From Gemmatimonadales bacterium (lineage in GTDB: Bacteria > Gemmatimonadota > Gemmatimonadetes > Gemmatimonadales > GWC2-71-9), in NCBI GenBank assembly GCA_046262715.1, contig JBHEMG010000185.1:2425-66424 (forward strand): a DNA stretch of 64,000 nucleotides. Direction: 5' to 3'. Positions 31,065 to 49,569 of the stretch are shown here, in pieces. Made by a program: the position numbers and the translations under genes. Below the pieces are notes generated by a model. The model was not told the DNA's origin. It made no database searches and was given only the letters and a program-made list of their open reading frames with translations. Within the stretch, counting starts at the first letter, position 1; the number at the start of each line of letters is the position of its first letter.

Positions 31065-32249
31065 CTAGAGACCGGTCCGGCGACGCAACGTCATCATTGC
31101 CCAGATACCGAATGCTGGTCCGATCGCCAATACGCTCATGCTCCATCGCCAGCCGATGTGCGATGCGACGACCGGCAGCAAGTAAATCGTCGCGCATGTC
31201 ACCAGAAAGCCGAGACTCGTTTGGAGTGTCAGCGCGGTGCCGACGTACTCAGGCGGCGCAAGCTCGCTCACCGCTGCCGAGAATTGCGCGGAATCAGCGA
31301 CGACAGTGACGCCCCACACGAGCAGCAACGGAAGCAGGATGGCGAGCGGCGACCCGAAGAGGAACCCGACCACCAGCGCGCAGCTCCCGGACACAAGCAT
31401 CGCCGCACTCGTGACGAGACTGCGACCCCAGCGGTCGGCGTACCTTCCCCCAAGCCAGCAACCGATCGCACCAGTGCCCACCACGCCGAACGTCACGAGT
31501 GCGGCGAGCGCCGCGACGTCGGCCTGCGGGCCCCGTCGCGCATGCTCGCTCGCGGCGACGAACGCCGCCATCCAGGTCCACATGGCGTAGAGCTCCCACA
31601 TGTGACCGAGATATCCGAGGTTAGCGAGCGCCACCGCGCGGTCGCCTAGAATCCGCGGAACGGCGGCGAGCGAGAAGCGCGCTGACGGAGCCGCATATGG
31701 GCCATCATCGGGAACGAGGAGCACCAGAAGCCCGCCAAAGGCCGCGCTGCAGGCGGCGACGACCAGGACGGTGCGCCACGCGGAAGCAGCGATCGCCCAG
31801 CGCACGAGGTGCGGGCTCGCCGAGCCGAGGGTGAGCGCACCAACCAGAACGCCGATCGCCACTCCTCTTCCTTCTTTGAACCAGCCCGCGGCGATCTTCA
31901 TCCCCGGGGGATAGACCCCAGCGAGGGCAGCGCCTGTGAGCAGCCGACACGCGATGCCCATCGTAATACCGCGTGAGGCAGCCACGCCGACCGTGGCGAC
32001 GGCCGCGAGGACCGCCGATACCGCCACCAGACGGCGCGAAGACACGCGATCGGCGAGGGTGAGGATGGCACTTATGAGCGCCCCGGCGACGAAGCCGAGT
32101 TGGACGGAGATCGTGAGCCACGCCGTGGCCGCGGGGGACAGCTGCCACGCGTGGGCCAAAACAGGAGCGACGGCAGAAGCACTGAACCACGGAGCCATCG
32201 CGAGGAGTACAGCGACAGCGAGTATCAACAGGACCCTACGCGGGCTCAC
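31065..32249 (-). CDS. MFS transporter
   Basis: This is the C-terminal 395 aa of ORF 31065..32792, with many TM segments. GTG 32249 overlaps the Nif3 stop (GTGA). The longer extension overlaps the Nif3 gene out of frame. Confidence 0.8.
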   Translation of the reverse strand: MSPRRVLLILAVAVLLAMAPWFSASAVAPVLAHAWQLSPAATAWLTISVQLGFVAGALISAILTLADRVSSRRLVAVSAVLAAVATVGVAASRGITMGIACRLLTGAALAGVYPPGMKIAAGWFKEGRGVAIGVLVGALTLGSASPHLVRWAIAASAWRTVLVVAACSAAFGGLLVLLVPDDGPYAAPSARFSLAAVPRILGDRAVALANLGYLGHMWELYAMWTWMAAFVAASEHARRGPQADVAALAALVTFGVVGTGAIGCWLGGRYADRWGRSLVTSAAMLVSGSCALVVGFLFGSPLAILLPLLLVWGVTVVADSAQFSAAVSELAPPEYVGTALTLQTSLGFLVTCATIYLLPVVASHIGWRWSMSVLAIGPAFGIWAMMTLRRRTGL

Positions 32250-33001
32250 AAGCCCGTAGGATGATCCAGAAACACCCAGGGCAGGTCGAACTTCTTGGAG
32301 AGATGCTCCGCCAAAGCCTTCACACCAACCGTCTCGGTCGCGTAGTGTCCAGCGTAGAGCGCGTTGATTCCCAATTCTTCGGCATCGAAGAACGTCCAGT
32401 GCTGCCCTTCTCCGGTGATATACGTGTCGAGCCCCGCGGCAGCGGCTTGCGGAATGAGCGCTCCGCCCGCGCCCGTGACGACGCCGACGCGTTGCACACG
32501 CTCTGGCCCGAATGGAAAGACGCGTGGGGCCGCGCCGAGTGCTTTCGTGAGCGCCCAACACAGCTCGTCGCGGGTGCCGCTGTACTCGCCCCAGACACCG
32601 ATGGGCGCGCCGTGATAGGAGCCGAACTCGCCACGGATCGTTATTCCGAGGAGCCGCGCCAAAATCGTGTTGTTGCCGACATCCGGATGACGATCGAGAG
32701 GAAGGTGGGCGGCGTAGAGCGCGATGTTTCCTTTGATCAGTCCCACGAGGCGCCGGTAGGCGGGACCGACCAGCGGCCGCGGCCCACCCCAAAAAAGACC
32801 ATGGTGAACGAGCAGAAGATCTGCGCGCTGATTCAGGGCGAGCCGGACCGTGGCTTCACAGACATCGACGGCCGCAGCCAGCCGCGTCGTTTCGCCCGAA
32901 TTGCCCACTTGGAGCCCATTCAGGGATTCGGGGGCATCAGCCACTTCGTCACGAATCCGGAGATATTCGTCCAGGTATTGGACAACAGTGTCCAAGCGCA
33001 T
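32246..33001 (-). CDS. Nif3-like dinuclear metal centre protein (YbgI/YqfO, GTP cyclohydrolase 1 type 2 homologue)
   Basis: NGLQVGNSGE...LLLVHHGLFWGG...YITGEGQHW...ALYAGHYATE. Confidence 0.85.
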   Translation of the reverse strand: MRLDTVVQYLDEYLRIRDEVADAPESLNGLQVGNSGETTRLAAAVDVCEATVRLALNQRADLLLVHHGLFWGGPRPLVGPAYRRLVGLIKGNIALYAAHLPLDRHPDVGNNTILARLLGITIRGEFGSYHGAPIGVWGEYSGTRDELCWALTKALGAAPRVFPFGPERVQRVGVVTGAGGALIPQAAAAGLDTYITGEGQHWTFFDAEELGINALYAGHYATETVGVKALAEHLSKKFDLPWVFLDHPTGL

Positions 33002-33040
33002 TACGACACCGTTATCACAGTATCAAGACAGATCAGAGTT

Positions 33041-33124
33041 TTTTCCACATGGGGGGATGGGTTAAGTCTATCTGTGACAATTACTTGACTAATCCACATA
33101 CCAACGTCCCGATCGTGTGGATAT
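33041..33124. promoter_or_regulatory. Cluster of DnaA-box-like 9-mers in the bactofilin/nif3 intergenic region
   Basis: TTTTCCACA at 33041-33049 (+), TAATCCACA at 33090-33098 (+), and TGTGGATAT at 33116-33124 (equal to ATATCCACA on the minus strand). Each is an 8/9 match to TTATCCACA, and the last two form an inverted pair with a 17-bp spacer. Confidence 0.4.
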
Positions 33125-33544
33125 CTACGCCCGCGCCAAAGAGGCCTGCCCGCGGGTAGCCTGCGGCGCTTGGCCCGCGTCTTCGCCCATCCGCAGGACG
33201 CCGTTGATCTCGCCACCCTCTTGGATCAACAGGCGTTTGGTGTGCACGTCGCCGTGCACGACACTGGTGGCTTGGAGCTCGACCCGCTCCTCGGCATAGA
33301 TCGCCCCGCGCACCTCGCCGCCGATGATTGCTTCGCGGCTCACGACGTCGCCTTCGACTTCCCCGCCCCGCGCTACGAGCACTTGCTTGGCGGCGCGCAC
33401 GGTGCCGTTCACGGAGCCTTCGATTTTTACGACGCCGTCGGCCGAGATGTCGCCCACGACGCGCATGCCGGCGCCGATGATCGAGAGCCCGGGAACGCCT
33501 TCGCGCCCACCGGCGCTCGTGCCTTTTTCGGTGAACACCGCCAT
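33125..33544 (-). CDS. Bactofilin (polymer-forming cytoskeletal protein, CcmA family)
   Basis: Repetitive beta-helix pattern: IIGAGMRVVGDISADGVVKIEGSVNGTVRAAKQVLVARGGEVEGDVVSREAIIGGEVRGAIYA. Confidence 0.85.
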   Translation of the reverse strand: MAVFTEKGTSAGGREGVPGLSIIGAGMRVVGDISADGVVKIEGSVNGTVRAAKQVLVARGGEVEGDVVSREAIIGGEVRGAIYAEERVELQATSVVHGDVHTKRLLIQEGGEINGVLRMGEDAGQAPQATRGQASLARA

Positions 33545-34362
33545 CAGTGCGTTCCTCCCTGTTTTACCATGTCCATCGGATCGATCGATTTGCCGTCGTG
33601 GCGAATTTCGAAATGCAGGTGCGGCGCGGTGGAGCGGCCCGAATTCCCCGACAAGCCGATCACTTGCCCTGCCTGAACATTGTCGCCCTCGGCTGCCAGG
33701 AGCCGTGACGTGTGACCATACATCGTCTCATAGCCGGACGGGTGCCGCAAGAGCACGAACAACCCATAGTCGGGATCGTAGCCGGCGGCCGTCACCCTTC
33801 CCCCTCCCGAGGCCCGTACCGGCGTACTGATCGGCACGGCAATGTCGATGCCGGGATGAGACTCATCGAGCACGCCAGGCCGGATCTGCCCGCGGGTGAC
33901 GAATCCCGCGACATCGAGCGGCCAGTGCGACGGCACGGAGGCGCCGAGCTCGTACGCGGTCAAGGCTCCCGGGAGCGACGCCCGGATCGCGACGGCACGC
34001 ATCGTCGTGCTCAGATCACTGCTGCGCGCCACCGTTCCCCCGCTGCGCGTCACGGGCGGTGCCTTCACACCCAGCATTTGGCGCAGCTCCTGGTAATTCG
34101 CCTCGGCGCGGTTCAATGCCGAAGCAAGCTGTTGGACGCGGCTGTTCTCGACGCGCAGCCGCGAGACTTCACGCTCCAAGACCGGCGCGCGCGCGGCGTT
34201 TCGCGCGATCGGCCCCGCAAATGCGAAGAACAGGACGATCAGGATCGCGACCGCCAACGCGCCCCACTTCCCCGCCATGACCGCCCAGCGCGGGAAACGG
34301 TACTGTTTGGATTCGAGGTCGCCGTCCGCGTGGACGACGATGGTGACGCCCCGCGTGGTCAT
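33544..34362 (-). CDS. M23 family metallopeptidase (LytM-type) with an N-terminal TM and coiled-coil region
   Basis: HPGIDIAVPISTPVRA...YGHTS...GNSGRSTAPHLHFEI. Its stop shares 1 nt with the bactofilin ATG (TGATG). Confidence 0.9.
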   Translation of the reverse strand: MTTRGVTIVVHADGDLESKQYRFPRWAVMAGKWGALAVAILIVLFFAFAGPIARNAARAPVLEREVSRLRVENSRVQQLASALNRAEANYQELRQMLGVKAPPVTRSGGTVARSSDLSTTMRAVAIRASLPGALTAYELGASVPSHWPLDVAGFVTRGQIRPGVLDESHPGIDIAVPISTPVRASGGGRVTAAGYDPDYGLFVLLRHPSGYETMYGHTSRLLAAEGDNVQAGQVIGLSGNSGRSTAPHLHFEIRHDGKSIDPMDMVKQGGTH

Positions 34363-35252
34363 CCGTCGAACGGCGCGCCCAGGATCAGCTCGAGAAGTCG
34401 AGCGAGGTCGTCATTCGAATAGAAGGACAAATGGATCTGTCCTTTCCCTTTTGCCCGAAGCGTAACCCGGACATCAGTCCCGAGGCGGCGGCGCAGCGCA
34501 TCTTCGACCCTGCGCACCTCGGGGGCGGCACCCATCCCTCGTTTCATGCGCGGTCGACGTTCCGGCGCGCGGCCGCCGCGCACACGGTCCTCAACCTCGC
34601 GCACCGACAACCCCTGTGCGACGGCCTCGCGCGCCAGATTCGTCACGACGCGCGGATCTTCCAACGCAAGCAGCGCGCGTGCGTGACCGACCGACAGCTG
34701 GTTCTCGTGCAGCATGTCGAGCACGGCTTCGGGCAGTTTGAGCAACCGAAGCGCATTCGCGACAGTGGAGCGATCCCGGCCGACGGCGTCGGCGACGTCT
34801 TGCTGCGCCAATTTGAATTCGGCGATCAGCCGCTCGTATCCGCGGGCTTCATCCACGGGGGAAAGATCGTCGCGCTGCAGGTTCTCGATCAGCGCCAGCG
34901 TCAGCAGCGTGCGATCATCCGCGTCGCGCTGCACGGCGGGGATGCGTTCCCAGCCTAGCTGCTGACATGCCCGCAACCGCCGCTCCCCAGCGATCAGCTC
35001 GTAGCCGCTGGTGCCACCGTTGGCCCGCCGCACGACAATCGGTTGGAGCAATCCGGCTTGCTTGATGGAAGAGACGAGCTCTTCCAGGGCGCCGGGGTCA
35101 ACGGTCTTGCGCGGCTGGAAGGGGTTGGGACGAATGTCCTGAATCGGTAGCTCGACCAGACTGCCTTCGCGCTGGGCTTCTTCCCGCGTCGGCCCAAGCA
35201 GGGCTTCGAGCCCTCGGCCGAGGCGACGTCCTCCTGCGGCGGTCTCCGTCAT
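34359..35252 (-). CDS. parB: Chromosome partitioning protein ParB (Spo0J)
   Basis: NPFQPRK, LLQPIVVRR, YELIAGERRLRA and an HTH region. ATGA overlaps are present on both sides. Confidence 0.9.
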   Translation of the reverse strand: MTETAAGGRRLGRGLEALLGPTREEAQREGSLVELPIQDIRPNPFQPRKTVDPGALEELVSSIKQAGLLQPIVVRRANGGTSGYELIAGERRLRACQQLGWERIPAVQRDADDRTLLTLALIENLQRDDLSPVDEARGYERLIAEFKLAQQDVADAVGRDRSTVANALRLLKLPEAVLDMLHENQLSVGHARALLALEDPRVVTNLAREAVAQGLSVREVEDRVRGGRAPERRPRMKRGMGAAPEVRRVEDALRRRLGTDVRVTLRAKGKGQIHLSFYSNDDLARLLELILGAPFDG

Positions 35253-36076
35253 GCGGGCACCTCCGGCGAAGGTTCAATAGCGGGGAGGCCAGGCGAGGGG
35301 GGGGCGCCTTGCTCGACCCGTCGGATCAATTCCTGCGCGACCGCGAGGTAACTCTTCGCGCCGATCGATTGCACGTCGTAGAGCACAATTGGCTTCCCGA
35401 AACTCGGCGCTTCCGCGAGACGCACGTTGCGCGGAATCGTGACGTTGAACATGCGACCGCCGAAATACTCTTTGGCTTCTTCGGCCACCTGCTTGCAGAG
35501 ATTGAGGCGCGCGTCGTACATCGTCAGCAGCACGCCCTCGATCGCGAGCGCCGGATTGAAATTGCGCTGCACGAGCTTGACGGTATTGAGAAGCTGCGAC
35601 AGCCCTTCGAGCGCGTAGCACTCGCACTGAATCGGGATGATCACACTGTCGGCTGCGGTCAGCATGTTGAGCGTGAGCAGCCCGAGCGAGGGCGGGCAGT
35701 CGATAATGACGTAGGTGTACTCTTCGCGAATTGCCCGCAGCGCATCGCGCATGCGCGTCTCGCGCGAGCGCTGGCTCACGAGCTCCAGCTCCGCGCCGAC
35801 CAGATCCTGCGTGGCAGGTATAACGTCGAGATAAGGAAAGTGTACGTGCGGAAAACGTGCCTGGGTGAGCGCGGAACCCTCGATTATCGCGTCGTAGAGC
35901 GAATGTCGAATACGGTCGCGCTCGATCCCGACGCCGCTGGTGGAATTTCCCTGCGGATCGGCATCGATGAGCAAGGTCTTTCGCTCGGCGGTCGCGAGAG
36001 ACGCGGCGAGGTTGACGGCGGTCGTCGTTTTGCCGACGCCGCCCTTTTGGTTTGCGATCGCGATTACGCGCGACAT
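35249..36076 (-). CDS. parA: Chromosome partitioning ATPase ParA (Soj)
   Basis: Deviant Walker A IAIANQKGGVGKTTTAVNLA, and YVIIDCPPSLG. Confidence 0.95.
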   Translation of the reverse strand: MSRVIAIANQKGGVGKTTTAVNLAASLATAERKTLLIDADPQGNSTSGVGIERDRIRHSLYDAIIEGSALTQARFPHVHFPYLDVIPATQDLVGAELELVSQRSRETRMRDALRAIREEYTYVIIDCPPSLGLLTLNMLTAADSVIIPIQCECYALEGLSQLLNTVKLVQRNFNPALAIEGVLLTMYDARLNLCKQVAEEAKEYFGGRMFNVTIPRNVRLAEAPSFGKPIVLYDVQSIGAKSYLAVAQELIRRVEQGAPPSPGLPAIEPSPEVPA

Positions 36077-36139: not shown

Positions 36140-36155
36140 CGTTTCACGTGAAACG
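36140..36155. promoter_or_regulatory. parS centromere site 1
   Basis: cGTTTCACGTGAAACg has a perfect palindromic core matching the TGTTNCACGTGAAACA consensus. Confidence 0.85.
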
Positions 36156-36165
36156 AAAGTGCCTA

Positions 36166-36181
36166 AGTTTCACGTGAAACT
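36166..36181. promoter_or_regulatory. parS centromere site 2
   Basis: aGTTTCACGTGAAACt has the same 14-bp core, 26 bp from site 1. Confidence 0.85.
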
Positions 36182-38127: not shown

Positions 38128-38514
38128 CTATGAGGCGCGAGGTAGGGGGGTGCGTGTTGCCGCGTCACTGATCTTTCGCAGCAGACCGTAAAGCGTCCGG
38201 CCTGTTTCATTGACCAAGGCTTCTAGGCGGCCGAAATCAGCAGGCGTGATGTAATCAAGTTCTCGCGCTATCTCGATTATCGTCTCGACCTCGGCGAGTG
38301 AGCCTCGAGCGGTATCCAGAAAACGTCTGTATTCTCGCGAGCCTTTTCGTGTATTGCCGTCGGCGATATTGAGCGGGACGCTGTAACATGCTCGTCTGAG
38401 CTGATCAGCCAGCGCTCCCTGCTCGTAATCCGGAAAGCCCCGTGACATCCGCACGCATTCGATCGCGAGTCTTTGTGCATGCTGCCAGGCTTTCAGAGTC
38501 TTGTAGTGGGCCAT
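38128..38514 (-). CDS. Four-helix-bundle protein (23S rRNA intervening-sequence protein / TIGR02436 family)
   Basis: ORF 38128..38550, with the conserved start MAHYKTLKAWQHAQRLAIEC...QLRRACYSVPLNIADG...GSLAEVETIIEIAREL. GC content is visibly lower than in the flanks. Confidence 0.8.
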   Translation of the reverse strand: MAHYKTLKAWQHAQRLAIECVRMSRGFPDYEQGALADQLRRACYSVPLNIADGNTRKGSREYRRFLDTARGSLAEVETIIEIARELDYITPADFGRLEALVNETGRTLYGLLRKISDAATRTPLPRAS

Positions 38515-38537
38515 GACACACAATGAGCCACAAAGCA

Positions 38538-38574
38538 AAAGGCACAGCATCCGATTCCCGCATGCCGTGCCTTT
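38538..38574 (-). terminator. Intrinsic terminator downstream of the ABC permease
   Basis: The minus strand reads AAAGGCACGGCAT gcgggaatcgg ATGCTGTGCCTTT followed by TGCTTTG. That is a 13-bp stem with one mismatch, an 11-nt loop and a T-rich tail. Confidence 0.55.
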
Positions 38575-38633
38575 CTACTGCCTCATTCCTCATAACCGCT
38601 CAGCCTCTTGGCCTCGGGGCGTCTTTGTTGGCT

Positions 38634-39893
38634 TTAGGCTCGGACCCACCGTACGAGTTCTTTCATACTGGGTCGCTTGCCCGTCATGAGTATTCCCACG
38701 CGATAAATCCTTGCCGCAACCCACGTCACTCCCACAATTGCGAGTCCCAGCATTGCCAGCGATGCCGTCAATTCCCCCGTTCCCATGCTTCCAGCAGTCC
38801 ACCGGACCGGCGTCGCGATCGGGGAAGTGAAGGGGATGAGCGAGAGCGTCTTCGCGAAGGTGGAGCTCGGATCGTTGGTCAACCCAATAATCGAGAAGTA
38901 GGAGATCATCAACAGATACGTCACCGGCTGCTGCGCCTGGCGGGCTTCCTGCTCGTTGCTCGACATGGCGCCGACTGCGGCGAACATGGCGGAATAGAGA
39001 AGAAAGCCGCCCAGGAAAAACGCCATGAATACCGCGACCGTGGCGAATGGGATGTGCGGAAGCTGGATTCCCTGCGCCGCGGCGGGATCGGCGCCGAGCG
39101 CTCGCGCGATCGGAACCCGCAGGGCGATGAGCAGGCGCGCGGATACGCCCCAGATGACGAACTGAAAGAACGAGACCGCGCCAGCGCCAAGGACCTTGCC
39201 GAGCATCAATTGGAACGGCCGCAACGATGAGACAAGCACCTCGACAATCCGCGTCGTTTTCTCCTCCAGCACCGAGCTCATCACGTTCACGCCATAGAGG
39301 AGAATGGCCATGAACAAGAGAATGGCCATGACGTACGCCAGCGCGAAGGACTGACCGGCACTCTCGGCGGTCGTGCGGCCGCGCGCGATTTTTTTCTGAT
39401 CCAGCGTGACCCGCAGATTCTGCGCCCAATCGACCACGGCCGGATTCACGCCTTTCCCCTCGAGTCGCACCTTTACGACGAGGCGGTTCAACGCGCGCTG
39501 CAGATCCTCGATCGTCTGGAGCGACAGGTTGGACGCCCGATACTCGGCCCTGCCGGTTTCGGGCAGCTCGTTTGAAACCATCAGGAATCCATTGAGCTCT
39601 TTGAGCTCCACCAGGTGTGTGAGCGAGTCCACGACGTTGGGGCCGGCGGGGACCCGGCTGGCCCGAATCAGCTTGCTCGTTTCCAAGGCTTCGACGACCT
39701 GCGCGCCAAAGTCGGACGTGGTGCTGTCCACGACGGCAATGTGGCGCACCGCGCCGCCCAGCGACTGCATGATCTGGAAAACGATGACGCCGGAGAACAA
39801 TACCGGTCCCAAAATGGCTGATACCCAAAACCATTTGGTCCGCACGCGCTCGACGAATTCCCGCCGAATCACCGCCCACACTTTATGCACCAC
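38634..39893 (-). CDS. ABC-2 type transporter permease (NatB-like)
   Basis: An N-terminal TM, a large extracytoplasmic loop, then five or six C-terminal TMs. It overlaps the upstream ATPase gene by 11 nt. Confidence 0.8.
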   Translation of the reverse strand: MVHKVWAVIRREFVERVRTKWFWVSAILGPVLFSGVIVFQIMQSLGGAVRHIAVVDSTTSDFGAQVVEALETSKLIRASRVPAGPNVVDSLTHLVELKELNGFLMVSNELPETGRAEYRASNLSLQTIEDLQRALNRLVVKVRLEGKGVNPAVVDWAQNLRVTLDQKKIARGRTTAESAGQSFALAYVMAILLFMAILLYGVNVMSSVLEEKTTRIVEVLVSSLRPFQLMLGKVLGAGAVSFFQFVIWGVSARLLIALRVPIARALGADPAAAQGIQLPHIPFATVAVFMAFFLGGFLLYSAMFAAVGAMSSNEQEARQAQQPVTYLLMISYFSIIGLTNDPSSTFAKTLSLIPFTSPIATPVRWTAGSMGTGELTASLAMLGLAIVGVTWVAARIYRVGILMTGKRPSMKELVRWVRA

Positions 39894-40848
39894 TGCCTCC
39901 GTCTTGGCTGCCCGTCGCCGCCGCGGTCGCGGCTGCAGGACCGACCAGATCGACGAAAATCGTGTGCAGCGACGGACTCGCGAGCTCGAAGCGCGCCAGC
40001 CGGGCGCCGGAATTCACGAGGCCCTTGAGGATCTCCTGCGCGTCCGCGTTCGGCGCGAGCTCCAGCTCCGCCTGCTGGCCAAAGTCCTGGATCTTCGCGA
40101 CGAGCCGGCGGTCGGCGAAAATCTGCTGCGCGTCACCCTGATTGCCGTCGAAGGCGACGATCAGATGCTTGCCGCCATGCCGCTGCTTCACCTCGCTGAG
40201 CGTGCCATCCACCAACTTCTTGCCACGCGCGATGATGCATAGCCGATCACACAGCTTCTCGGCGTGCTCCATGATGTGCGTGGAAAAAAGGACGGTCTTG
40301 CCGCGCCGGCGGTAGTCGACAACGGTGTCGCGCAGCACCTGAGAATTGACCGGATCGAGTCCCGAGAACGGCTCATCGAGGATTACCAGCTCGGGATCGT
40401 GCAGGATCGTGGAGATGAACTGCACCTTCTGCTGCATGCCCTTGGAAAGATCGGACACCTTTCGCATGCGCCAATCGGCCAGGCCCAAGCGGTCCAGCCA
40501 TTCGATGGCTTTGGCCCGCGCCGCCCGTCGCGACACGCCTTTCGCCTCAGCGAGGAATACGAGCACGTCGAGCACACGCATGCGCGGATAGAGCCCGCGC
40601 TCTTCCGGCAGGTAGCCGATGCGCGAGGAGTGGGTGCGACCGCCGCCGAGATCGTTGAACAGCCGGACCGAGCCCTCATCCGGCTCGTAGATGTCCATGA
40701 TCATTCGCAAGGTGGTGGTCTTGCCGGCTCCGTTCGGGCCGAGAAGTCCGTAGATCGTGCCGGAGGGAACGCTCAATGACAGAGCATCGACCGCGGTATG
40801 GCCAGCGAATTTCTTGACGACGCGATCGACAACGACCGGTTCTGACAT
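39883..40848 (-). CDS. ABC transporter ATP-binding protein (NatA-like)
   Basis: ORF 39883..40923. Conserved from MSEPVVVDRVVKKF. Walker A GPNGAGKTT, signature LSKGMQQK, Walker B LVILDEP. Confidence 0.9.
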   Translation of the reverse strand: MSEPVVVDRVVKKFAGHTAVDALSLSVPSGTIYGLLGPNGAGKTTTLRMIMDIYEPDEGSVRLFNDLGGGRTHSSRIGYLPEERGLYPRMRVLDVLVFLAEAKGVSRRAARAKAIEWLDRLGLADWRMRKVSDLSKGMQQKVQFISTILHDPELVILDEPFSGLDPVNSQVLRDTVVDYRRRGKTVLFSTHIMEHAEKLCDRLCIIARGKKLVDGTLSEVKQRHGGKHLIVAFDGNQGDAQQIFADRRLVAKIQDFGQQAELELAPNADAQEILKGLVNSGARLARFELASPSLHTIFVDLVGPAAATAAATGSQDGGSGA

Positions 40849-40861
40849 GCCGCAAGCTAAA

Positions 40862-40896
40862 GGGGACGGGGGAGGGGGGAAGGGGAGGGGGGAAGG
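40862..40896 (+). other. G-run tract with G-quadruplex potential on the plus strand (polypyrimidine on the mRNA-sense strand)
   Basis: GGGGacGGGGGaGGGGGGaaGGGGaGGGGGGaaGG. There are five runs of 4-6 G separated by loops of 1-2 nt, lying between the sufS stop (40898) and the ABC ATPase ATG (40848). Confidence 0.85.
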
Positions 40897-40897
40897 C

Positions 40898-42208
40898 TTA
40901 GGCCGGAACGCCGAAAAGCGCACCCGCTTTCCGGACCGCGGCGACTAACGCGTCGACGTCGTCCACGTCGTTGTAGATGTAAAAGGAAGCGCGCGCCGTT
41001 GCCGCCACACCGAGACGCCGCATGAGCGGTTGGGTGCAGTGATGGCCGGCGCGAATGCAGACGCCGTCGCGGTCGAGAATCGTTGCAAGGTCGTGCGGAT
41101 GGATATCGCCATAGGTGAACGGCACCACACCGGCCCGATGATCGCGCGGCCCGTAGACCGTCACACCGTCGATTTCGCCCAGCCGTTCGATCGCAATACG
41201 CGCGAGATCCCGCTCGTGCTCGGAGACCTGTTCCATCCCGAGCTGCTCCAGATAGGCGATCGCGGCTCCCAAACCGACGGCGGCCTCGACGTTGGGCGTC
41301 CCGCCCTCGAACTTGTGCGGAATCTTGTTCCAGCTGGAGCGGTCGTCCCACACGCGCTCGATCATTTCACCGCCGCCATGGTAGGGTGGCATCTCCTCCA
41401 AGAGCGCCGGTTTGGCGACGAGCGCTCCGCTCCCCATGGGCGCGAGCATCTTGTGGCCGGAGAGGGCGTAGAAGTCGCAGTCGAGCGCCTGAACGTCGAC
41501 CCGCAGATGGGGGCTCGACTGGGCCCCGTCCACCATCGTGACCGCCCCCGCCGCGTGGGCCAGCTTGCAGAGCTGCCCCACCGGGTTCACGGTCCCAAGG
41601 GAGTTCGAGACATAAGGAAAGGCAACGAGCTTGGGCAGCAATTCGAGCGCGCGGCCGAAGTCCGACAGGTCGATCCGTCCGTCGGCCGTGATCTCGACCA
41701 TCCGGAGGCTGGCGCCCTTTTCCTGACAGAGGATCTGCCATGGCACGATGTTGGAATGGTGATCCATGGCCGTTACTACCACGGTATCGCCGCGGCTCAC
41801 GTTGGCGCGGCCCCAGGACGAGGCGACGAGGTTGATCGCCTCGGTCGTGCCGCGCGTGAACACCACGCCTTCCCGCGCCCAGGCATTCACGAACCGGGCG
41901 ACGGCGGTTCGCCCCGCTTCATACGCCTCCGTTGCCTCCACCGCCAGCGCGTACGCGCCGCGGTGGACGTTCGCGTTGTGAAAGCTGTAGTAGTGGACGA
42001 GAGCCTCGATCACTTTTCGCGGCTTCTGGCTGGTTGCGGCGTTGTCGAGGTACACAAGCCGCTGCCCGTTCTCTTTTTGCGAGAGAATCGGGAAGTCAGG
42101 CCGTATGCGGCTGGTGTCGATCAGAAATCCCGCGCGGACTCGGTCGTGACCGGCTCGGCGCTCTTTTGCAGCGCCGCGTGCAAGGCATGCCACGCGAGGC
42201 TCGCGCAC
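40898..42208 (-). CDS. sufS: Cysteine desulfurase SufS
   Basis: RPDFPILSQ...VYLDNAATSQKP, SGHKMLAPMGSG, RAGHHCTQPLM. The listed ATG 42208 would overlap sufU by 88 nt; a CTG overlapping the sufU stop is an alternative (see findings). Confidence 0.9.
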   Translation of the reverse strand: MREPRVACLARGAAKERRAGHDRVRAGFLIDTSRIRPDFPILSQKENGQRLVYLDNAATSQKPRKVIEALVHYYSFHNANVHRGAYALAVEATEAYEAGRTAVARFVNAWAREGVVFTRGTTEAINLVASSWGRANVSRGDTVVVTAMDHHSNIVPWQILCQEKGASLRMVEITADGRIDLSDFGRALELLPKLVAFPYVSNSLGTVNPVGQLCKLAHAAGAVTMVDGAQSSPHLRVDVQALDCDFYALSGHKMLAPMGSGALVAKPALLEEMPPYHGGGEMIERVWDDRSSWNKIPHKFEGGTPNVEAAVGLGAAIAYLEQLGMEQVSEHERDLARIAIERLGEIDGVTVYGPRDHRAGVVPFTYGDIHPHDLATILDRDGVCIRAGHHCTQPLMRRLGVAATARASFYIYNDVDDVDALVAAVRKAGALFGVPA

Positions 42209-42579
42209 TTGATGCGGCTCGGGAATGCACGCACACCGGAAAACGCCACGAGCTTGCCGGGCGCACTTGCGCCGCCCGCGAGCATTTCACGAAAGGCCTG
42301 GAACATTCCCTCGGCGTCGGCGACGGGCTTTCCTTTGACGGCGTCGGTCATTAGCGACGCGGACGCCTTGGAGATGGCGCAGCCTGCGCCCTGCGGCATC
42401 TGAAATCCGATGTCGCTGATCTTGTCGTCGTCGACCTGCACGTAGAGCTGAATGCGATCACCGCACAGCGGATTATTCCCCTCGGCTCGATGACTCGCTG
42501 TCTCCATCCGTTTGAAATTCCGCGGATTGCGATTGTGGTCGAGAATGACCTGCTGATAGAGATCCCCGAGATCGGTCAC
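42121..42579 (-). CDS. sufU: SUF system NifU-family Fe-S scaffold SufU
   Basis: LYQQVILDHNRNPRNF, NPLCGD, GAGCAISKASAS, RIKCASLAW. Confidence 0.85.
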   Translation of the reverse strand: MTDLGDLYQQVILDHNRNPRNFKRMETASHRAEGNNPLCGDRIQLYVQVDDDKISDIGFQMPQGAGCAISKASASLMTDAVKGKPVADAEGMFQAFREMLAGGASAPGKLVAFSGVRAFPSRIKCASLAWHALHAALQKSAEPVTTESARDF

Positions 42580-43898
42580 GACTCTGCCAAGCGATCGCGT
42601 ACGATGCGGTCGAGCTGTGTCCGCAACGGGCCGACGTCCATACGGCCGAGGATCTCGGCGGCAAAGCCGTAGGTCAGCAGCCGGCGCGCCTCATGCTCAC
42701 CGACGCCGCGGCTTCGCAGGTAAAAGAGCGCGCGCGGATCGAGCGGGCCGACCGTGGAGCCGTGCGTGCATTTCACGTCGTCGGCATAGATCTCGAGCTG
42801 CGGCTGACTGTCGGCGTGCGCCTCGGACGAGAGCAGCAGGTTGTTATTGGTTTGCTTGGAATCGGTCTTCTGCGCCCCGGGTCGCACGATGATCCGCCCG
42901 GTGAAGACGCCGCGCGATTTCCCGTCGAGCACGCCGTTGAAATACTCATGACTCTCGCAATGGTCGGCGGCGTGATCGATGGTCGTGTGGTGGTCGGCAT
43001 GCTGCTCGCCGGCGAGCAGATACAGGCCATTGAGAACCAGCGTACCTCCCGGCCCTGCCATGACGCTGCCGATGTCATGCCGAGCGAGCGCGGCACCGAA
43101 CGCCACGACATGGAGATTGACGGTGCTGTCGCGGCCCTGATGCGTATCAGTTGCGGCCACGTGAAAGGCGCCGGGGCCCTCGCGCTGCACGCGGTGCAAA
43201 TCGACGCGGGCGCCGTCGCCCGCGCTGATTTCGGTGACGGCGTTGGTCCAATACGGCCCGTCGCCGATCGCGGCGTACGTCTCGATAATGGAGGCACGCG
43301 CTTCGCGCTCGACGACGAAGAGGCTCCGGGGATGCGTGACCACACGCGCGTTCTTCGTCGGCATCGCGAGAAAGAGCAGTTGAATCGGCTCGGCGACACT
43401 CTGCTTGGCGGGAATGTGGACGAAGGCGCCGTCACGCAGAAAGGCGGTGTTGAGGGCGGAGAACGGACGCTCCTGGTGCTCGGCGTATCTGCAGAGATGC
43501 GCGCGTACAAGGTCGGGCTGATCGGCGAGCGCCTGCCCCAAACCGTCCACGCGCACGGCGCCCGCAATCACGGTAGACAGCGTGCGCTGCAGGAAGCCGT
43601 TGACGAACACGAGCCGAGCACCGCCATCGTCGAGCAGAAAGGGGCGGATCTCTTCGAGCGTCGGAACGCGGGTGGGCGGATGCGCAGGCTCGAACGTGGC
43701 ATCCGCGATCGCCGAGACGCTCGTGAAGCGCCACGCTTCCTGCTTCATGGTGGGGAATCCCAGCGCGCCGAATCGGGCGATACCGCCCTCGCGCAGATCC
43801 TTCAGCCAGCCGGGCGCGCGGGAGGCGCCGTTCGCCGCCCATGCGTGGTAGGAGCCAACCAGCCGTTCGACGGAACCCGTTTTCACTGCCATCGTCAC
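42576..43898 (-). CDS. sufD: Fe-S cluster assembly protein SufD
   Basis: Its position between sufC and sufU, plus C-terminal beta-helix blocks (VFTGRIIVRPGAQKTDSKQTNNNLLLS...PQLEIYADDVKCTHGSTVG). Confidence 0.85.
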   Translation of the reverse strand: MTMAVKTGSVERLVGSYHAWAANGASRAPGWLKDLREGGIARFGALGFPTMKQEAWRFTSVSAIADATFEPAHPPTRVPTLEEIRPFLLDDGGARLVFVNGFLQRTLSTVIAGAVRVDGLGQALADQPDLVRAHLCRYAEHQERPFSALNTAFLRDGAFVHIPAKQSVAEPIQLLFLAMPTKNARVVTHPRSLFVVEREARASIIETYAAIGDGPYWTNAVTEISAGDGARVDLHRVQREGPGAFHVAATDTHQGRDSTVNLHVVAFGAALARHDIGSVMAGPGGTLVLNGLYLLAGEQHADHHTTIDHAADHCESHEYFNGVLDGKSRGVFTGRIIVRPGAQKTDSKQTNNNLLLSSEAHADSQPQLEIYADDVKCTHGSTVGPLDPRALFYLRSRGVGEHEARRLLTYGFAAEILGRMDVGPLRTQLDRIVRDRLAES

Positions 43899-44685
43899 GA
43901 CACCATCACGCCATCACGCAGCCAGTCGTAGCCTCGGGCCTCGAGTTCTTGTGCCAGTTCGGGACCCCCGGACTTCACGATCCGCCCGTGCGCCAGGACG
44001 TGGACGACGTCCGGCGTGATGTAGTCCAGCAGCCGCTGGTAGTGCGTCACGATCAAGAAGGAGCGATCGGGACTCCGCAGCTTGTTCACCGTCTCGGCGA
44101 CCGTTTTCAGGGCGTCGATGTCGAGGCCCGAGTCGGTTTCATCGAGAACGGCCAGCCTGGGCTCGAGCACAGCGAGCTGCAGGATCTCGTTGCGTTTCTT
44201 CTCGCCGCCCGAGAAGCCCTCGTTCACCGGACGGTTCATCATCGTGTCGTCCCAGCCGATGGCTTTCAGCTTCGCTTCGAGCACCTGGAGGAAATCGATC
44301 GGATCGAGCTCCGGCTGGCCGCGATGCCTGCGCAGCGAGTTGAGCGCCGAGCGCAGGAAATAGGAGTTCGTGATGCCGCGAATCTCGACGGGATACTGGA
44401 ACGCGAGAAACACGCCTTCACGCGCGCGCTCCTCAGGCTTGAGATCGAGCAAGTCCTTGCCGTCGTAGGTCGCGCTGCCGCCGAGCACCGTGTAGGCCGG
44501 ATGACCGGCGAGCACCTGGGCGAGCGTGCTCTTGCCCGAGCCGTTCGGCCCCATGATCGCGTGCACTTCCCCGTCGCGGATGGTGAGATCCACGCCCTTC
44601 AGAATCTCGGTGCCGGCAACAGCGACGCGCAGTCCTTTCACCTGCAGGAGCACGTTTGCCGTTTCCCGTTTCTCGCGTCCCGACA

Positions 44686-44686
<1 letters not shown>
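43895..44686 (-). CDS. sufC: Fe-S cluster assembly ATPase SufC
   Basis: This is the internal part of ORF 43895..44935. LQVKGLRVAV...GPNGSGKSTL, FSGGEKKRNEILQ, AVLDETDSGLD. ATG 44686 overlaps the sufB stop (TAATG). Confidence 0.95.
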
Positions 44687-46119
<1,433 letters not shown>

Positions 46120-46181
46120 CGCGCCCTTGGAAGTCGTTGCAAGACATGAGTTTGGCAATTAAAAACTGAGCTCAATTGGGA

Positions 46182-47469: not shown

Positions 47470-47487
47470 GACCCGCTACATTCCCAC

Positions 47488-49569
<2,082 letters not shown>

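Follow-up and report, generated by a model that had tools for sequence, protein, structure and literature searches.

Promoters repressed by the initiator protein DnaA are familiar from the autoregulation of dnaA and from mioC and nrdAB of Escherichia coli. At the chromosomal origin oriC, the basal unwinding system is said, in work of Richardson in 2016 and Pelliciari in 2021, to combine DnaA boxes, a GC cluster, DnaA-trios and an AT-rich element. Outside oriC, Bacillus subtilis carries DnaA-box clusters (DBCs), for example at yydA-yycS, thdF-jag, sda and ywlC, some of which regulate their neighbours and which jointly damp initiation with Soj and Spo0J (Okumura et al. 2012, PMC3245932). The DnaA of Caulobacter crescentus binds boxes at the parS centromere (Mera et al. 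2014, as reviewed in PMC6399470), and the core of E. coli DARS1 and DARS2 consists of three boxes with a spacing of 5 bp between boxes I and II (Sugiyama et al. 2019, PMC6868365). The present analysis concerns a stretch of 64,000 nucleotides from a Gemmatimonadales bacterium (contig JBHEMG010000185.1; hereafter the window) and, within it, a 123-bp intergenic gap (33002-33124) that holds three near-consensus DnaA boxes between the genes for a bactofilin and for a protein of the DUF34/NIF3 family (nif3). To our knowledge, nothing has been established experimentally about replication control in Gemmatimonadota. The gap is a real, conserved and lineage-specific cis-element; on comparative evidence it is most probably a regulatory cluster that binds DnaA, placed at the promoter of nif3 and at the 3′ terminus of the par operon, and it is not the origin.

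Three DnaA boxes in the bactofilin-nif3 gap

The gap extends from the bactofilin stop codon to the nif3 start codon, with both genes on the minus strand, and has a GC content of 43% in a window of 65%. Direct reading and a pattern search located three words in it that match TTATCCACA at eight of nine positions, all inside 84 bp. Box 1, ATATCCACA (33116-33124, minus strand), stands immediately after the bactofilin stop codon. Box 2, TAATCCACA (33090-33098, plus strand; TGTGGATTA in the nif3 sense), points the opposite way to box 1 and is separated from it by a GC-rich spacer of 17 bp (33099-33115), the sequence of which varies among genomes. Box 3, TTTTCCACA (33041-33049, plus strand; TGTGGAAAA on the nif3-sense strand), has the orientation of box 2 and lies at the predicted -35 position of nif3. 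The 40-bp interval between boxes 2 and 3 (33050-33089) contains a GC cluster, TGGGGGGATGGG, beside box 3 and then about 30 nt of AT-rich sequence. An earlier reading of this DNA from its letters and open reading frames (the sequence-only reading) had reported the three boxes, an inverted pair with a 17-bp spacer abutting the bactofilin stop, an AT-richer gap, and a neighbourhood of twin parS sites and mnmG-parAB 3 kb away, and all of these were recovered as described.

The clustering of boxes in the gap is not a matter of chance, because three matches never arose when the 123-bp gap was shuffled 20,000 times with its dinucleotides preserved (mean 0.08; P = 0.0026 for at least two) and because three of the six one-mismatch matches to TTATCCACA in the 64 kb fall inside it. 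The window-wide total of six is not unusual by itself, being reached in 9 of 100 shuffles. The other eleven low-GC islands of the window contain no box. Counting boxes elsewhere had been named as a check, and it came out in favour of the cluster: across 1.27 Mb the background was 0.075 relaxed boxes per kb, and no other box cluster was found in any Gemmatimonadota locus except in the dnaA-side origin region of one genome, L052 (complete chromosome OY970192.1).

Conservation of the boxes and of their geometry

A scan with Nif3 returned 80 loci, the closest of which were metagenome-assembled genomes of Gemmatimonadales; 20 of them (L001-L018, L024 and L067; Nif3 identity 63-85%) form the window-type set. 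Read in the nif3 sense, the order in these 20 loci is the bactofilin stop codon, ATATCCACA in most of them, the spacer, TGTGGATT, and a third box, TGTGGAA or TGTGGGAA. The general form of box 1 is (A/T)TATCCACA with an invariant core TCCACA; besides ATATCCACA, it occurs as TTATCCACA, a 9/9 match, in L010 and L017 and as TTGTCCACA in L018. Box 2 has the form TGTGGAT(T), and its core TGTGGAT is invariant. As box 3, the 10 closest loci have TGTGGAA and most of the next group TGTGGGAA or TGTGGGAG, the exceptions being CGTGAGAAT in L016 and the absence of a match in L018.

Boxes 1 and 2 start 25-27 bp apart in 20/20 relatives, and the GC-rich spacer between them, variable in sequence, measures 16-18 bp throughout the 21 sequences. 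From the start of box 2 to that of box 3 the distance is 48-49 bp in 19/20, with variable AT-rich sequence in between. A -10-like GATACT or GATAAT follows box 3 at a distance of 23-25 nt in 17/20, the box being upstream. At or below 35% GC, the longest stretch in the window has 46 nt; among the 20 relatives it has 26 nt in L017 and 38-66 nt in the other 19. To judge from the alignment, the boxes are under purifying selection, their cores and spacing being kept while the flanks drift. The pair of nif3 and the gene for a major facilitator superfamily (MFS) transporter is likewise retained in most window-type loci.

The order parA-parB-M23-bactofilin-nif3 is shared by about 40 Gemmatimonadota loci, and more distant genomes with this synteny hold boxes in arrangements other than the layout of the window. 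The gap of L052 contains TTGTCCACA, TTTTTCACA, TTATCCACA and TTTTCCACA, that of L060 TTCTCCACA, TTATCCACA and TTTTCCACA, that of L059 TTGTCCACA and TTTTCCACA, and that of L066 TTATCCACA; 2-4 boxes thus occur in L052, L059 and L060, and a single one in L023, L035, L056, L066 and L075. The AT-rich stretch is missing in L059, L060 and L066. Some gaps without boxes (L019-L022 and L026-L029) share words of another kind, GTCAC/GTGAC-type repeats such as CTGTCAC...GCATCAC, which may be the site of another regulator at the same junction.

The same words at the dnaA promoter of the phylum

Across the order, the boxes vary as TTNTCCACA with a free position 3, which agrees with the known degeneracy of DnaA boxes, represented by TTATCCACA in E. 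coli, TTGTCCACA in actinobacteria and TTTTCCACA in cyanobacteria. A metagenome scan with the DnaA of L052, a protein with the Pfam domains Bac_DnaA, Bac_DnaA_C and DnaA_N and the motif GGRDHSTV, returned 80 dnaA loci. The Gemmatimonadota-like dnaA promoter proved nearly invariant in about 17 loci, reading GGTCAAGG-TTGACT-TTTCCACA-N8-(C)GTACTTT, and is located about 60-70 nt before the dnaA start (L081-L100 and L110; L052:1745-1770). Its box overlaps the -35 element and spacer of the core promoter TTGACT-N17-TACTTT, an autoregulated-looking layout of the textbook kind.

The box word TTTTCCACA is found in both the nif3 gap and the dnaA promoter, where it becomes TTATCCACA or TTGTCCACA in a few loci. 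The dnaA leader of L097 holds ATATCCACACG, an 11-mer identical to box 1, and the origin region of L052 holds GAATCCACA and CTTTCCACA, the most frequent versions of boxes 2 and 3. Because the dnaA promoter, a dnaA leader and an origin region all contain them, these are evidently the box words that the DnaA of this lineage uses.

A predicted DnaA platform at the nif3 promoter

An extended -10-like element, TGATACTGT (33017-33025, minus strand; hexamer TACTGT at 33017-33022), is predicted in front of nif3. The word GATACTGT is identical in 10 of 11 aligned sequences, L005 being one base off (GATAGTGT), and the T or C that precedes it gives an extended -10-like (T/C)GATACTGT, with box 3 lying 16-18 bp upstream. 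The element is similar to (G)TACTTT, the -10 in the conserved promoter of dnaA. After five variable bases follows the invariant ACGGTGTC (33005-33012, minus strand), 3-6 nt before the nif3 start, which is the predicted region of transcription start and ribosome binding; the -10-like element and ACGGTGTC together predict a short nif3 leader. GATACTGT and ACGGTGTC also make up an imperfect palindrome, the latter as its 3′ arm.

Two further candidates at this promoter were tried and rejected. A sigma-54 or extracytoplasmic function (ECF) promoter drawn from TGTGGAA...CTGCC was discarded on inspection of the alignment, as its spacings do not fit. The palindrome GATACTGT-N5-ACGGTGTC as a hairpin of the 5′ untranslated region is invariant, hence uninformative, and conflicts with GATACT as the -10. 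Since ACGGTGTC never varies, it gives no covariation signal, either way, on an RNA hairpin.

With a probability of roughly 60%, we read the gap as a non-origin DnaA-box cluster, a fixed-geometry DnaA platform at the junction of parAB-M23-bactofilin and nif3-MFS that would control nif3-MFS. In the proposed mechanism, domain IV of DnaA would bind all three boxes, and box 3 would occupy the -35 position of the predicted nif3 promoter, so that DnaA occupancy would set the transcription of nif3-MFS. Repression by occlusion would be the most likely mode, as at the dnaA promoter of the phylum with its box over the -35 and spacer. The inverted boxes 1 and 2 would serve as upstream anchors, and DnaA molecules may cooperate across bent DNA of the AT-rich interval between boxes 2 and 3, which is suggested because the 48-49 bp spacing is rigid while the sequence drifts. 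As a by-product, a few DnaA molecules would be retained near the centromere (titration), and the inverted pair, as an RNA hairpin with a U-rich tail, may help to end the par-bactofilin transcript.

Among the functions put forward in the sequence-only reading, that of a DnaA-regulated site or DnaA-controlled nif3-MFS promoter is favoured by the conserved boxes and geometry, the position of box 3 at the -35 and the shared words. That of a DnaA-titrating site also draws support from comparative evidence, namely the conserved geometry and the occurrence of the same words at the dnaA promoter and oriC.

Several points weigh against promoter control by DnaA. The occupancy of the boxes is inferred from sequence and the promoter is a predicted one; a sigma-70 promoter scan at a threshold of 9/12 found no promoter in the gap, and the predicted -35 is poor. 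Box 2, which reads GAATCCACA in most relatives, is just a 7/9 match there, with the mismatch at the important T2. The rigid 49-bp spacing exceeds the needs of a simple repressor site. About 10 genomes with the same bactofilin-nif3 synteny have no boxes, and nif3 genes away from the par operon carry essentially none, so that the link is lineage-specific and could lie with either nif3 or the 3′ end of the par operon. Moreover, the proximal box of L052, L059 and L060 is oppositely oriented and is followed by no clear -10.

A second inverted pair had also been pointed out in the gap, TTATCACAG (33012-33020) and CTGTGACAA (33072-33080). It is present as reported, but it does not exceed chance expectation, as two TTRTCACAG matches arise in 9/100 shuffles of the window, and the distal copy, CTGTGACAA, is conserved in no relative. 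The pair was therefore rejected as a feature, one arm merely overlapping the conserved -10-like block (TTATCACAG with the TGATACTGT element). The TTRTCACAG words read like DnaA boxes minus one C (TTATC-CACA), and only the promoter-proximal copy overlaps a conserved block (GATACTGTGATAA).

Control of DnaA itself and termination as alternatives

It is doubtful that the gap regulates DnaA itself, whether by datA-like titration or inactivation, by DARS-like reactivation, or by coupling DnaA to the centromere as at Caulobacter parS. The orientation of the boxes is that of the DARS core, in which box II is opposed to box I and shares the direction of box III (PMC6868365), and the rigid spacings of 25-27 and 48-49 bp with variable spacers suggest an ordered nucleoprotein complex, in which the fixed geometry and a bendable AT-rich interval would build a specific DnaA oligomer; the DARS spacing of 5 bp between boxes I and II, however, stands against 16-18 bp here. 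The AT-rich interval between boxes 2 and 3 has a one-mismatch word resembling a site for integration host factor (IHF) in the window (AGTCAAGTAATTG), but the word is not conserved in relatives, and an E. coli-type IHF site was rejected for that reason. The gap boxes are nearer the consensus than most in the lineage's own oriC, and parS lies 3 kb away, with precedents in the B. subtilis clusters that act with Spo0J/Soj (PMC3245932) and in Caulobacter DnaA at the parS boxes (PMC6399470, citing Mera 2014). Yet the window is not established as origin-proximal, there being no dnaA within at least 26 kb; about 10 syntenic genomes do without the cluster, which is unexpected for a core cell-cycle element; and the fixed distance of box 3 from the -10-like element points to promoter control. 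It appears unlikely that the three-box architecture, with a presumed high-affinity inverted pair, a bendable AT-rich interval of 48-49 bp and a third box, retained beside the centromere operon throughout a clade of Gemmatimonadales, is a dedicated DnaA-control locus, be it a datA/DARS analogue or a site coupling DnaA to segregation like the Caulobacter centromere.

There is also a small chance that the inverted pair serves the par-bactofilin transcript chiefly as an intrinsic terminator or 3′-end hairpin and that the third copy is the -35 of nif3, the likeness to DnaA boxes being incidental or the words being bound by another transcription factor. The pair starts at the bactofilin stop codon and can form a stem of 7-10 bp, with -7 to -18 kcal/mol for the hairpin alone and z down to -4.75 in some relatives; the fold in the window, however, is no better than that of shuffles (z = -0.68), and the stems are invariant rather than covarying. 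The tails that follow are T-rich, e.g. TTCTCTAA and TTGTTTATCTCT, though mixed, whereas the loop of 16-18 nt is atypical and a terminator scan of the gap was empty. Complementarity of the spacer next to the boxes does not exceed that of shuffled spacers (P = 0.28). Furthermore, the third copy lies outside the hairpin, the word arrangements of the distant genomes cannot make it, and the same words recur at the dnaA promoter and oriC of the phylum. An RNA hairpin over boxes 1 and 2 as the primary function was rejected: RNAalifold predicts it, but in an invariant stem with one pair showing a compensatory change and with spacer pairing equal to that of shuffles. A role in termination is possible as a secondary one beside the preferred DnaA-box cluster at the nif3 promoter.

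The origin of replication in this lineage

The complete chromosome L052 has dnaA 8.3 kb upstream of its nif3 gap. This dnaA is divergent from rpmH, and parA, parB, a bactofilin gene and nif3 come after rpmH on its strand. Just downstream of dnaA stand TAGTAGTAATAG-GCGG-TGTGGACTC-GTGGATATC and further boxes, an arrangement of DnaA-trios, GC cluster and boxes as in the basal unwinding system, and this chromosome carries both a dnaA-side origin and a nif3-gap cluster, 8-9 kb apart. A DnaA-trio signature, consisting of TAGTAGTAGTAG, a GC cluster and then boxes, is present in the dnaA-dnaN gap of relatives. Of the high-GC dnaA loci with sufficient sequence after the gene, the closest 15 include nine with CTACTACTACTA-type arrays by a strict pattern and a further five with interrupted arrays, e.g. 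CTACTGCTACTA, recognized by eye, which makes 14/15 altogether. The arrays sit 120-280 nt after dnaA, just before dnaN. The candidate oriC (L052:40-270; dnaA-dnaN gaps of L081-L100) is laid out as CCCACAT(A/T)TCCCC, 4-5 nt, a CTACTACTACTACTAGTA trio array, about 40 nt of AT-rich sequence, and dnaN, and the boxes inside it are mostly of a weak TGTGGG type, further from the consensus than those of the nif3 gap. The trio-plus-box signature was found nowhere outside the dnaA side of L052 in 1.36 Mb, the window included, and no run of at least three trio-like triplets occurs on either strand in 25 nif3 gaps (that of the window and 24 related ones). The trio-bearing dnaA-dnaN gap is thus the likely oriC of the lineage.

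The nif3 gap shows none of the strand switching of an origin. On the nif3-sense strand, the GC skew of the window stays positive across the gap (+0.013 on one side, +0.007 on the other), as it is on the two sides in 30 and 28 of 36 loci, and the cumulative skew over the 64 kb has no minimum at 33 kb. The genes from bactofilin out to 46.6 kb (roughly 13 kb) are all transcribed towards the gap, with the same strand used on both sides, and would therefore be head-on to replication were the gap an origin. The location of dnaA and dnaN had been named as a check: neither was found in the window by a motif search or by tblastn with Gemmatimonadales DnaA and DnaN, and the origin signature was found beside dnaA in relatives. 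The shared genes linking dnaA loci to the window are just generic mnmG and parA matches in distant genomes. The gap does have the box cluster of an origin, and its 46-nt stretch at or below 35% GC lies between two boxes, without trios.

On this comparative evidence the gap is not oriC, because the trios stand beside dnaA and none are in the gap, the skew does not switch, and dnaA and dnaN are absent from the window. That it could be the chromosomal origin of this clade, or an essential module of one, is very improbable: near-consensus boxes with 40-46 nt at or below 35% GC inside a 65% GC genome, an order of box, GC cluster and AT-rich sequence superficially like a basal unwinding module, the par/mnmG neighbourhood and the position as the sole box cluster in 64 kb would speak for it, but they are outweighed by the trio/GC cluster/box signature of the dnaA-dnaN gaps, the constant skew sign, the head-on genes on the par side and the absence of the cluster from about 10 syntenic genomes. 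The suggestion that the site might be part of oriC is accordingly abandoned, and the accompanying caution about the shortness of the site and its lack of an obvious unwinding element was right.

Gene neighbourhood

On the minus strand, the Pfam-assigned gene order is mnmG, parA, parB, M23 peptidase, bactofilin, the gap, nif3 and MFS. Directly downstream of the boxes is nif3 (32246-33001, minus strand; PF01784, E = 1.8e-58), and the MFS transporter gene (MFS_1; about 31065-32250, minus strand) lies 3′ of it. On the other side, bactofilin (33125-33544), M23 peptidase (33544-34362), parB (34359-35252) and parA (35249-36076), all on the minus strand, form a tightly packed string (33125-36076) that terminates at box 1, the bactofilin stop codon at 33125-33127 abutting the box. 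The twin parS sites, CGTTTCACGTGAAACG and AGTTTCACGTGAAACT with GTTTCACGTGAAAC cores (36140-36155 and 36166-36181), are located between mnmG and parA with 10 bp between them, 3 kb from the box gap; the three matches to the parS pattern were reached in 0/100 shuffles. The M23 peptidase and bactofilin genes (33125-34362, minus strand) are joined to the parAB string, with stop and start codons overlapping or abutting, and recall the reported bactofilin-M23 (LmdC) morphogenesis pairs.

Directly upstream of mnmG, a suf-type string for Fe-S assembly (38590-46158, minus strand) comprises two SufB/D-family genes, an ABC ATPase and a class-V aminotransferase, followed within the same interval by an ABC-2 transporter pair; a gene of the 23S-rRNA-IVP family is found at 38128-38550. 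A TPP riboswitch (65 bits, above the gathering threshold; 47485-47583, plus strand) stands directly before thiC (47574-48923, plus strand). It was the only Rfam match in the whole window at the gathering threshold and lies outside the gap; the gap with 300 nt on either side gave no Rfam match at E ≤ 1, and a tRNA scan found none. The DUF34/NIF3 family is tied to metal and Fe-S metabolism in a review of DUF34, which mentions no link to DnaA (PMC8469502).

Significance

Three cis-elements can be proposed for the phylum: a candidate oriC with trios between dnaA and dnaN, a conserved, autoregulated-looking dnaA promoter, and the rigid cluster between the par-bactofilin string and nif3. Control of nif3 by DnaA would connect the poorly understood DUF34/NIF3 family with the cell cycle. 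Were DnaA itself the target of the cluster, the phylum would have its own counterpart of datA, DARS or the B. subtilis clusters, and a DnaA-control locus of this kind would set DnaA activity or link initiation to ParABS/bactofilin-based segregation. For annotation, the lesson is that a par-proximal box cluster should not be labelled an origin.

Comparison with known systems

The basal unwinding system shares with the gap the placement of DnaA boxes beside a short GC cluster and an AT-rich stretch, whereas the gap is without trios, a tandem box pair at the AT-rich stretch, a skew switch or linkage to dnaA/dnaN. The parS boxes of Caulobacter are a conceptual parallel, being, like the gap, initiator sites tied to a parABS locus rather than to the origin; they lie within the parS region, whereas in the window the boxes stand downstream of the operon, 3 kb from parS sites that are located upstream of parA.

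The three boxes of the DARS core are oriented as in the gap, the first two opposed and the last two alike, and DARS2 has a site for a bending protein nearby. The close I-II spacing of DARS permits a head-to-head AAA+ dimer. In the gap the corresponding spacer is 16-18 bp in 21 sequences, not 5 bp, and the II-III interval is about 40 bp, so that membership of the DARS type fails on the spacing of boxes I and II.

DnaA-repressed promoters resemble the arrangement predicted at nif3 in having a box over the -35 and spacer of a sigma-70-type promoter, and TTTTCCACA is shared with the dnaA promoter of the phylum; the nif3 box differs in being oppositely oriented and in having a poor -35 and two extra upstream boxes at fixed distances. 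The B. subtilis DBCs are, like the gap, small intergenic clusters of near-consensus boxes that lie outside oriC in the chromosomal region of parS. Compared with them, the gap belongs to another phylum and has only three boxes in a strict geometry of an inverted pair plus one at the 3′ end of a par operon. The non-oriC DnaA-box clusters as in B. subtilis are the nearest known kind, and the Gemmatimonadales instance is new.

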